In this document: positions 35,301 to 38,300 of the stretch, in pieces
Position numbering within the stretch: position 1 is the stretch's first letter
Layout: each line of letters opens with the position of its first letter
Assembly: GCF_988243305.1 (NCBI RefSeq)
Contig: NZ_OZ547136.1
Direction: 5' to 3' (one strand)
DNA length: 64,000 nt
Position numbers: made by a program

Positions 35301-38300
35301 ACAATGTCGCGGCTGGTGAGTAACCAGCCGCAGGGGTGATTATCAGGCAACCTGTACCGGAATGGCTTTCGCGGTACGTTTCATTTCGTTGTCGCCTTCA
35401 AAATAGGCGACGTTGGGCCGCCAGGTGCGAGCTTCTTCATCTGGCATGGTAACGAAGCTGGCGATGATGACAATATCGCCGACGCTGGCGCAGTGGGCCG
35501 CCGCACCGTTAACGGAAATAATTCTCGAACCGCGTTCTGCCGCGATGGCATAAGTGGAGAAACGCTTGCCGTTGGTGACATTCCAGATATCAATGGCTTC
35601 GTTTTCGAGAATACCGGCTGCGTCAAGAAAATCCTGGTCAATGGCGCAAGAACCTTCATAGTGCAGGTCCGCATGAGTCACTTTCACGCGGTGGAGTTTG
35701 CCCTGCAGCATCGTGCGAATCATAACTTCTACCTTTCTACCCTGTCGTTAACGAAGCAGGCGATGCCTGCTTTGAGGAAATTCTCACGCAGTATTGCCCG
35801 ATTTTTGTTTAGTGTCTACTCATCTGACGGCATTTGCATCAGCAGTTTGCGTACCGTGCCGAAGCGTGCCATGTAACGCCTGTAACCAATTGAAATTTCT
35901 CTGAACGCTGCTCGGTAAACAATAAAGAGGCGGCTGACGACGGCGCGCCTTGACTGGATACTGCCTTCACGCAAGACAACACGGAAGGCAGGGAAGATGG
36001 ATGCACCGAGTACCACACCGCATGACGCGGTATTTAAACAATTTTTAATGCATGCGGAAACGGCTCGTGACTTTCTGGATATCCATTTGCCAGCGGAACT
36101 ACGCGAACTGTGTGACCTCGACACGCTGCATCTTGAGTCGGGGAGTTTTATTGAAGAAAGCCTGAAAGGGCACAGCACTGACGTGCTCTATTCCGTGCAA
36201 ATGCAGGGTAATCCCGGTTATTTGCATGTGGTGATTGAACATCAAAGCAAGCCGGATAAGAAAATGGCCTTTCGCATGATGCGTTATTCTATTGCTGCCA
36301 TGCACCGGCATCTGGAGGCGGATCACGATAAGCTGCCGCTGGTGGTGCCGATTCTGTTTTATCAGGGCGAGGCCACACCTTATCCGCTCTCAATGTGCTG
36401 GTTTGATATGTTTTACTCGCCGGAGCTGGCGCGACGCGTTTACAACAACCCTTTCCCGCTGGTGGATATCACCATCACACCGGATGACGAAATCATGCAG
36501 CATCGGCGGATTGCGATTCTCGAACTACTGCAAAAACATATTCGCCAGCGCGACTTAATGTTATTGCTGGAGCAACTGGTCACGCTGATTGACGAAGGGT
36601 ACACTAGCGGAAGTCAGTTAGTTGCCATGCAAAACTATATGCTGCAACGCGGTCATACTGAACAAGCGGATTTGTTTTATGGTGTGCTGAGAGACAGGGA
36701 AACGGGAGGGGAGTCTATGATGACGCTGGCGCAGTGGTTTGAAGAGAGGGGAAGACAGGAAGGAAGACAGGAGGTAAGACAAGAGGTAAGACAAGAGGTA
36801 AGACAAGAGGTAATACAGGAAGTAACACAGGAAGTAAGTCAGGAATTCGCCCAGCGTCTTCTGAGTAAAGGAATGTCTCGGGAAGACGTTGCAGAGATGG
36901 CAAATTTACCCCTTGCCGAGATTGATAAGCTGATTAACTAAGTTGTCTGCATCATCAGTTATAGCCAGATAATTGTTATTGTTAACTGACCAGATAATTA
37001 AGGGAACCTATGGAAATAAAGACACGGAGAGAAACCAGGCAGACGTTGGCGCAGTGGTTTGAAGAGAAGGGATTTCAGAAGGGATTTCAGAAGGGATATA
37101 AAGAGGGACTCCGGAAGGTAAGGCTGGCACAGCGTCTTCTGAGTAAAGGAATGTCTCGGGAAGACGTTGCAGAGATGGCAACTTTATCTCTTACAGAGGT
37201 TGATAAGCTAATTAACTCTAACTAAGTTGTCTGCGTTATGAATTATCGCTTACAGATAACGTGGCAATGAATAACTGGCGCCATCAGCCGTAGCGCCAGT
37301 TAAGTATTACACCAGCTCGACTATTTTGTTGTCGATCAGGCGGGCATCGCCAAGCCAGGCGGCTACCAGAATCACTGCACGTTTGCTGTTTTCAGAGACC
37401 TCCAGCAAGGTGTCGGCATCACGAATCTGAATATCATCGGCGCGGAAGCCTTTTTCATTCAGTTCTTGCCCGGCAATAGTAATAATTTCATCGAGATCCC
37501 GTTCGCCAGCCTGCAATTTGTCGGCAATCGAACTTAAAACCTTGTACAGACCAGGCGCAATTTTGCGTTGTTCCGCCGTCAGATAACCGTTACGGGAACT
37601 CAGCGCCAGACCGTCTTTGGCGCGCATAATTGGCACACCGACAATCTCAATATCAAAGCCCATATCAGCAACCATTTTGCGGATCAGCGCCAGTTGCTGA
37701 AAATCTTTTTCACCGAAGCAGGCGATGTCCGGCTGGACCAGATTGAACAGCTTGCTGACGATAGTCGAAACGCCGCGAAAATGTCCCGGACGGCTGGCAC
37801 CTTCCAGCATGGTAGAAAGACCGGGAACATCAACATAGGTGTGGGTTTCTGTACCGTTCGGGTAGATCTCTTTTACCGAAGGGGCGAAAACTAAATCCAC
37901 TTTGCGCTTGTTCAGCTTTTCGCAGTCCTCTTGCAAGGTCCGTGGATAACGTGCCAGATCTTCCGGGCGGTCGAACTGCATCGGGTTAACGAAAATACTG
38001 ACGACGACCACATCGGCGCGGGCTTTGGCTTCGTCGACCAGCTTCATATGGCCGTCGTGCAGGTTACCCATGGTGGGCACCAGCGCCACGCGCTTACCTT
38101 CCATACGCAGGCGGCGGATTTGCTGACGCAGCAGCGGCAGGGTTTCGATAATTAACACAACGTCACTCCTTAATGGAAACTGTGTTCTTCGCCCGGATAA
38201 ACGCCGGACTCCACTTCAGCCATATACTGCCGCACAGCCGCGCGGATGTCGCCCGTTTCGGCGAGGAAATTTTTGGCGAATTTAGGAATATGACCGCCGG

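Follow-up and report, generated by a model that had tools for sequence, protein, structure and literature searches.

Introduction

Bidirectional terminators between convergent genes of Escherichia coli were reportedly described by Ju, Li and Liu in 2019. The model published for such elements is Rho-independent and needs a stem-loop for the positioning of collisions (Wang et al., 2022, bioRxiv 10.1101/2022.10.23.513370). In a second class of 3' ends, Rho-dependent transcripts end precisely just past stable stem-loops that lack U-tracts; some of these ends lie inside downstream coding regions, and a mild enrichment of C over G follows them (Dar and Sorek, 2018). Convergent excludons, as defined by ExcludonFinder, are pairs whose transcript boundaries in RNA-seq overlap in 50% or more of 58 samples, and the 165 convergent excludons listed for E. 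coli K-12 MG1655 include both rpnC-panC and yadE-panD, the latter being named in the discussion of functional links (Sanmartin et al., NAR 2025, PMC12288877). The tight convergent layout and the overlap of yadE and panD are therefore already known, as a catalogue entry in the literature. Here, we analyzed the yadE-panD junction in a stretch of 64,000 nt from contig NZ_OZ547136.1 of assembly GCF_988243305.1 (referred to as the window), and we consider it likely that the 3' end of panD is Rho-dependent and defined by a protective stem-loop embedded in the tail of yadE.

The junction shares features with each of the described systems. As in the class of Dar and Sorek (2018), panD has a stable GC-rich stem-loop directly upstream of a precise mapped end, no U-tract, bicyclomycin-sensitive read-through and an end within the coding region of the downstream gene, whereas the C>G skew downstream is weak at panD and both the exonuclease trimming and the Rho utilization (rut) site are putative. 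Like convergent excludons, yadE and panD lie tail to tail on opposite strands with a very short spacer and with a terminator-type structure inside the transcription unit of the neighbour; by contrast, the listing of the pair records overlap of RNA-seq coverage only, while the defining outcome of an excludon is mutually exclusive expression and RNase III processing. With the bidirectional terminators of Wang et al. (2022) the junction has in common a palindromic hairpin without canonical U-tracts at a convergent junction, as found at seven other convergent junctions of the window. Such terminators are elements placed between genes with 3' ends on both strands, whereas the sequence and the Term-seq tables locate the yadE-panD hairpin inside a coding sequence (CDS), with a 3' end listed on one strand only and with Rho-dependent read-through. 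Finally, the hairpin resembles a canonical intrinsic terminator in its GC-rich stem of 9-10 bp, its short loop and its position close behind a stop codon, but it lacks a U-tract (taken as at least 5 U in 8 nt), the mapped end lies 4-5 nt past the stem instead of about 7-9 nt, and a consensus scan called it on neither strand.

A stem-loop at the yadE-panD junction

In the window, yadE (CDS 34110-35339, plus strand; 409 amino acids; stop codon TGA at 35337-35339) is supported by the list of open reading frames (ORFs), by matches to PF01522 and NCBIfam models and by the RefSeq annotations of strains 118UI and K-12. The gene panD (CDS 35343-35723, minus strand; 126 amino acids) codes for the aspartate 1-decarboxylase proenzyme according to the ORF list, the RefSeq annotation and a full-length match to the NCBIfam equivalog TIGR00223 (228 bits, cut-off 106), and its stop codon TGA at 35343-35345 appears as tca on the plus strand. 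Residues 228-366 of YadE form a polysaccharide deacetylase domain (PF01522), and the protein is predicted to be an exported member of the polysaccharide deacetylase family; it has been termed an exported protein of unknown function (bioRxiv 10.1101/2025.02.18.638797). An earlier note on this DNA had described the two genes as convergent with a gap of 3 bp, which was borne out by the ORFs and the sequence of the window: yadE ends at 35339 (plus) and panD at 35343 (minus), and the spacer TTA (35340-35342) separates both stop codons. A comparison of the spacing with other strains, as the note had suggested, revealed the same 3-nt gap in the RefSeq annotations of K-12 MG1655 (b0130/b0131 pair; yadE, 145081-146310; panD, 146314-146694) and of 118UI, a uropathogenic strain whose complete genome is the closest to the window. 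The window is collinear with 118UI over 17051-56250 and not outside this range, and the junction coordinates were checked directly in the window.

A junction segment of 601 nt was found in 5422 of 5426 complete E. coli genomes, at a median of one place per genome, and all 29 full-length matches that were sampled evenly down the ranking measured exactly 601 nt, i.e., without net insertion or deletion. Among the 5486 places matching the junction, 60 sit on records labelled as plasmids, which is odd for a core chromosomal locus; these records may be mislabelled replicons or large chromosomal segments on plasmids. Identity between the window and K-12 amounts to 97.6% for yadE and 98.4% for panD, and the hairpin stem is identical. 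In the segment comprising both stop codons and the spacer (35334-35348), K-12 (GGATAACAATCAAGC) deviates from the window (GGGTGATTATCAGGC) at 5 of 15 nt: its spacer reads CAA instead of TTA, its yadE stop codon is TAA instead of TGA, and a second in-frame stop codon, TAA, directly follows the panD TGA on the minus strand of the window and is missing from K-12.

The hairpin is a perfect, GC-rich inverted repeat of 9 bp with a 5-nt loop (35309-35331, annotated on the minus strand; arms GCGGCTGGT and ACCAGCCGC). It occupies codons -11 to -3 of yadE, within the last ten codons, begins 11 nt past the panD stop codon and, on the plus strand, ends 5 nt upstream of the yadE stop codon. In RNA of panD sense, a closing U·G pair (35308/35332) extends the stem to 10 bp. 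The folding energy was -18.5 kcal/mol in panD sense (minus strand, z -5.3) and -19.5 kcal/mol in yadE sense (plus strand, z -4.4), and in either case none of 200 shuffled sequences was as stable. The tail after the panD-sense stem reads GACAUUGUCUCC and contains no U-tract, and the consensus terminator scan, run on both strands of the window and of K-12, found no site combining a hairpin and a U-tract at the junction (35300-35345). When up to three mismatches were allowed, the hairpin pattern was still found only once in the 64-kb window, and an Rfam scan of 33500-37500 returned only a small nucleolar RNA (snoRNA) match at chance level (E 0.26). A repetitive extragenic palindromic (REP) element was considered and rejected, given the single copy in the window, the median of one junction per genome and the lack of an Rfam match.

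The 3' end of the panD transcript has been mapped in K-12 MG1655. Term-seq detected a dominant minus-strand 3' end at 146275 in lysogeny broth (LB) at an optical density (OD) of 0.4 and 2.0 and at 146276 in M63 medium, and this end was labelled 'primary' with respect to panD and 'antisense' with respect to yadE (Adams et al., 2021, eLife, PMC7815308, supplementary file 1). The published 61-nt string of this end was matched to the K-12 sequence and then transferred to the window by homology. The mapped panD RNA ends with ...CCAGCCGCGACAU-3', 4-5 nt past the stem, at a position equivalent to 35304/35305 of the window. By homology to MG1655 146275, the 3' untranslated region (UTR) of panD would thus comprise 39 nt (35304-35342, minus strand), of which 36 nt (35304-35339) are antisense to the yadE CDS. 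Ends of this type are common, as 99 of 1175 3' ends in LB at OD 0.4 were both 'primary' and 'antisense' (PMC7815308). For the plus strand, no 3' end of yadE is present in the Term-seq tables of Adams et al. (2021).

Moreover, the same study reported a region of Rho termination at 145798 on the minus strand, antisense to yadE, with a Rho score of 7.18 (p 8e-27; PMC7815308, supplementary file 2). Reads upstream and downstream of this position numbered 214 and 27 in untreated cells, compared to 412 and 373 in the presence of bicyclomycin. Since MG1655 145798 corresponds to approximately position 34827 of the window, the antisense stretch crossed before the Rho stop would span 34827-35303 (minus strand), with its far end about 480 nt past the mapped end, and we infer that the transcripts antisense to yadE originate at the panD promoter. 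The earlier note had held that transcripts of each gene must read into the 3' end of the other. For panD into yadE this agrees with the Term-seq end 35-36 nt inside yadE in all three conditions and with the Rho region at 145798; for yadE into panD, the support is indirect and consists of the listing of the pair as overlapping in 50% or more of the 58 RNA-seq samples, with no plus-strand end in the Term-seq tables. Termination within the coding regions without overlapping transcripts, the outcome that the note had named as speaking against it, is contradicted by the Term-seq data. The interpretation of the note is partly supported, and the antisense interference that it had raised is a potential effect.

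We interpret the hairpin at 35309-35331 as the stem-loop by which the 3' end of the panD mRNA is set and protected. Following this, we propose that RNA polymerase passes the panD stop codon, transcribes the hairpin from 35331 to 35309 and would mostly run on antisense into yadE, because no U-tract follows the stem. Rho would load on the antisense RNA, as the latter is untranslated, and would terminate transcription within a few hundred nt, which is in line with the published bicyclomycin data. Subsequently, 3'-to-5' exonucleases would trim the RNA to the base of the hairpin, as proposed by analogy to the class of Dar and Sorek (2018), and leave the stable and precise 3' end 4-5 nt past the stem, the end itself being the published one. 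The outcome would be a stable panD message overlapping yadE by 36 nt, together with transient antisense RNA covering up to about 0.5 kb of yadE, and the yadE reading frame would run straight through the hairpin. Interference with yadE would be a by-product that may or may not matter.

On the yadE side of the junction, a weak candidate stem, GTACCG..CGGTAC (35354-35377), is located in the last panD codons and is followed on the plus strand by the U-rich sequence GTTTCATTTCGTT (whole feature 35354-35390). This 6-bp stem was rejected as a yadE terminator for want of support: its fold has a z of -1.3 and its conservation does not exceed what coding explains, with a mean of 4.8 of 6 pairs formed where yadE is adjacent as compared to 4.3-4.5 where it is not, drifting third positions and no covariation. 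The U-richness after the stem is due to the Asn-Glu-Met-Lys codons on the other strand. From these comparisons it is concluded that, towards panD, yadE lacks a conserved terminator of its own. Inside panD, a consensus terminator site at 35422-35406 (minus strand) was taken as a chance occurrence, because no Term-seq end lies there and the number of such sites is not above that in shuffled sequences.

With regard to its spacing, yadE-panD is the tightest of the nine convergent junctions of the window, whose gaps are 34, 42, 70, 37, 46, 40, 3, 81, and 34 nt, so that the other eight range from 34 to 81 nt. In four 50-kb samples of MG1655 (200 kb), 7 of 28 convergent CDS pairs overlap or lie at most 3 nt apart, namely nei-abrB (-4 nt), tcyP-ydjO (3 nt), cho-ves (-41 nt), nudG-ynjH (-35 nt), yqfG-yqfH (-4 nt), bioP-metR (-113 nt), and tatD-rfaH (-4 nt), and an eighth close pair, ynjE-ynjF, has a gap of 8 nt. 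The 3-nt gap is an outlier within the window and ordinary genome-wide. Furthermore, 16 distinct perfect hairpins of at least 9 bp were counted in the window as compared to about 2 in order-1 Markov simulations. Most of them sit at the 3' ends of genes, and 8 of the 9 convergent junctions have one, the yadE-panD hairpin being the only one of these eight that lies within a coding sequence. The notion that the junction leaves almost no room for terminators thus holds for the 3-nt spacer only and fails for the junction as a whole, since a strong hairpin of the kind present at other convergent junctions sits inside the 3' end of yadE. Probably, the 3-nt gap arises from gene packing and not from a missing terminator.

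Conservation of the stem in enterobacterial genera

A PanD-based scan with one genome per GTDB species yielded 80 enterobacterial loci. A convergent yadE lies 1-6 nt from panD in 43 of these, among them loci of Escherichia, Salmonella, Citrobacter, Pluralibacter, Pseudocitrobacter, Klebsiella, Enterobacter, Lelliottia, and Silvania. A gap of 32-35 nt with an extra intergenic hairpin was found in eight loci (Kluyvera, K. pneumoniae, one Raoultella and one Enterobacter), and the remaining 29 have no yadE, a truncated one or one that is 61 nt or more away. Whether or not yadE is adjacent, the hairpin accompanies panD: all 80 loci have one that begins 2-29 nt past the panD stop codon, and in only 10 of them is its tail U-rich; the 43 loci with a tight junction have a mean of 3.0 T in the 10-nt tail. 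The YadE C-terminus, ...SRL[V/I]SNQPQG up to the stop codon, lies outside the Pfam deacetylase domain and is of constant length and nearly constant sequence across the genera, hence the gap varies through the spacer only. The idea that the yadE tail arose recently, by read-through into an older panD terminator, was rejected, the tail being of the same length and near-identical in all genera.

In 49 distinct sequences from more than 10 enterobacterial genera, Escherichia, Salmonella, Citrobacter, Klebsiella, Enterobacter, and Kluyvera among them, the stem is 98.8% paired, and its covariation score exceeded those of all 500 shuffles. Pair 16-24 is G·U in 18, A-U in 16 and G-C in 15 sequences, and the switch from G-C to A-U joins a Val-to-Ile replacement with a synonymous change of the Asn codon from AAC to AAT. 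Pair 13-27 changed from C-G to U-A in two Kluyvera sequences. The synonymous third positions of the six stem codons showed a mean entropy of 0.35 bits compared to 1.05 bits in 70 further conserved codons among the last 100 (Mann-Whitney p = 0.0005), and the Arg codon CGG in the stem, although six-fold degenerate, is invariant in 52 sequences. Due to the asymmetry of G·U pairs, 27 cells of the comparison pair only in panD-sense RNA and 5 only in yadE-sense RNA, and the panD-sense fold is the more stable one in 42 of 48 sequences. All comparative tests point in the same direction, and by these sequence comparisons the hairpin is likely under selection at the nucleotide level beyond the coding constraint.

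Several individual loci deserve mention. In the eight loci with a wide gap (L031, L032, L040, L044, L047, L057, L062, and L068; locus positions around 3385-3416), the yadE-internal hairpin is kept, and the 32-35 nt spacer harbors another GC-rich hairpin, of 11-12 bp. Three Kluyvera sequences of a single lineage have a C·A mismatch in the internal stem, which may reflect relaxed constraint. In the urinary isolate E. coli Ec-U7 (L003; locus 589-3154), the insertion sequence IS2 is located inside yadE, and the last 204 nt of the gene, the hairpin and the 3-nt junction are intact. In Escherichia sp. MOD1-EC7003 (L005), only a 41-residue N-terminal fragment of yadE is found near panD, and the panD-adjacent hairpin is kept.

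Alternative explanations

The proposed Rho-dependent panD 3' end with its protective stem-loop faces a number of objections. All 3'-end and Rho data stem from K-12 MG1655 and were carried to the window strain by homology, and the Rho score, which uses 800-nt windows, resolves neither the origin of the RNA at the panD promoter nor read-through at the hairpin itself. Past the hairpin, the skew of C over G is weak, with C/G ratios of 1.00, 1.39 and 1.31 over 50, 100 and 150 nt, respectively, and a 3' end 4-5 nt past the stem could also derive from trimmed RNA that had been terminated intrinsically with low efficiency. Moreover, the shuffle-based statistics overstate independence because the compared sequences are related, and full double changes occur at one pair only, in two sequences. 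Finally, in Kluyvera and K. pneumoniae the internal hairpin persists beside the second, intergenic hairpin, thus its role may exceed the formation of the panD 3' end.

Among the alternatives, the junction might represent a functional excludon, in which the overlap has been selected so that each gene represses the other via polymerase collision or occlusion and via RNase III cleavage of the duplex between the panD 3' UTR and the yadE mRNA; pantothenate and coenzyme A (CoA) supply would then be linked to envelope function. The ExcludonFinder entry, the retention of a tight junction of 1-6 nt in many genera and the antisense transcription into yadE, which is real and limited by Rho, are in accordance with this explanation. 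However, the fixed C-termini (...NQPQG in YadE and ...VQVA in PanD, each up to the stop codon) and the conserved hairpin together account for the retained junction, some lineages have a spacer of 32-35 nt and an extra hairpin, and about one quarter of the sampled convergent pairs of MG1655 are equally tight. The statement of ExcludonFinder that yadE and panD act in the same pathway is not supported by their domain content, a deacetylase as compared to a decarboxylase, and in the literature, the ExcludonFinder supplements not being covered, we found no data on reciprocal expression, capture of double-stranded RNA or RNase III that are specific to yadE-panD. We therefore regard a selected mutual repression as unlikely.

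To a similar degree, it is doubtful that the palindrome serves as a shared, collision-assisted bidirectional terminator which ends both the panD and the yadE transcripts without Rho. The perfect palindrome does fold on both strands (-19.5 and -18.5 kcal/mol), the same type of hairpin is found at the seven other convergent junctions, and the published model needs just such a stem-loop to position collisions (bioRxiv 10.1101/2022.10.23.513370). Nevertheless, a yadE transcript terminated at the hairpin, whose plus-strand end lies 5 nt short of the yadE stop codon, would be a non-stop mRNA, and the Term-seq tables hold no plus-strand 3' end. Furthermore, the antisense read-through is sensitive to bicyclomycin, whereas this class is described as Rho-independent, and the G·U pairs improve the helix of panD sense in 42 of 48 sequences.

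Only as a very improbable extension do we mention a conserved reciprocal switch centred on the hairpin: yadE mRNA trimmed to the palindrome would lack its stop codon and be directed to rescue by transfer-messenger RNA (tmRNA), capping the amount of YadE, and pairing of yadE mRNA with 36 nt of the panD 3' UTR would expose the hairpin to RNase III and shorten the half-life of the panD mRNA upon yadE induction. If this were true, an envelope deacetylase would be coupled to the synthesis of beta-alanine and CoA. Very improbable as well is a mere coincidence, in which the palindrome does no more than encode the conserved YadE tail SRL[V/I]SNQPQG and nothing follows from the tight spacing: both the length and the sequence of the C-terminal peptide are highly conserved among the genera, and protein constraint could therefore contribute to the conservation of the nucleotides, but the synonymous positions of the stem vary less than those in the 70 other conserved codons with the Arg CGG invariant, the nonsynonymous Val-to-Ile change is paired with a compensating synonymous one, a measured RNA 3' end lies at the foot of the stem, and the perfect hairpins of at least 9 bp, 16 in the window vs. 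about 2 in the simulations, are clustered at gene ends.

Other features of the window

Between panD and panC, the window carries rpnC (35997-36941, plus strand), coding for a recombination-promoting nuclease of 314 amino acids with QEVR-type tetrapeptides repeated in a run close to the C-terminus. Among the 80 loci, rpnC was found at this place only in Escherichia, Pseudocitrobacter, S. enterica diarizonae and one metagenome-assembled genome. It is followed by a separate ORF of 71 amino acids (37010-37225, plus strand) that matches the C-terminal tail of Rpn proteins only (TIGR01784 positions 213-273); the K-12 rpnC is shorter (903 nt) and comes without this extra ORF. Of the nine convergent junctions, all but that of rpnC, or of the 71-amino-acid ORF, with panC (37226-37306) have a perfect hairpin of at least 9 bp. 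In MG1655, a strong Rho termination region with a score of 16.9 is antisense to rpnC/yadD at 147624 on the minus strand (Adams et al., 2021, PMC7815308).

Two further regions differ from 118UI. About 2.8 kb between aroP and pdhR (8251-11100) are absent from that strain, and here an ORF at 8722-10503 (plus strand) codes for a 593-amino-acid fusion of Hcp (PF05638), an S-type pyocin domain (PF06958) and a colicin/pyocin DNase (PF21431), directly followed by an ORF at 10503-10799 (plus strand) for a 98-amino-acid colicin/pyocin immunity protein (PF01320). Judged by these domains, the ORF pair at 8722-10799 is assigned to a strain-variable Hcp-toxin/immunity module of the type VI secretion kind. 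The region 56251-58250, which corresponds to fhuA of 118UI, has no 20-mers in common with that strain, and its flanks match closely; it probably represents a divergent fhuA allele.

Significance

For a well-annotated locus and a known kind of feature, the result matters little beyond bookkeeping. It does illustrate that a near-zero convergent gap is not the same as a missing terminator, as a 3'-end stem-loop can be encoded in the reading frame of the neighbouring gene. The yadE tail is, moreover, an example of dual constraint, in which a conserved protein tail coincides with an RNA stem that shows suppressed synonymous change and a compensating Val/Ile-Asn pair. Deleting or recoding the yadE 3' end would take away the 3' stem-loop of panD, which could lower the stability of the panD mRNA and the pantothenate supply. 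This is of relevance for the design of knockouts; in Ec-U7, for instance, the IS2-disrupted yadE leaves the junction intact.

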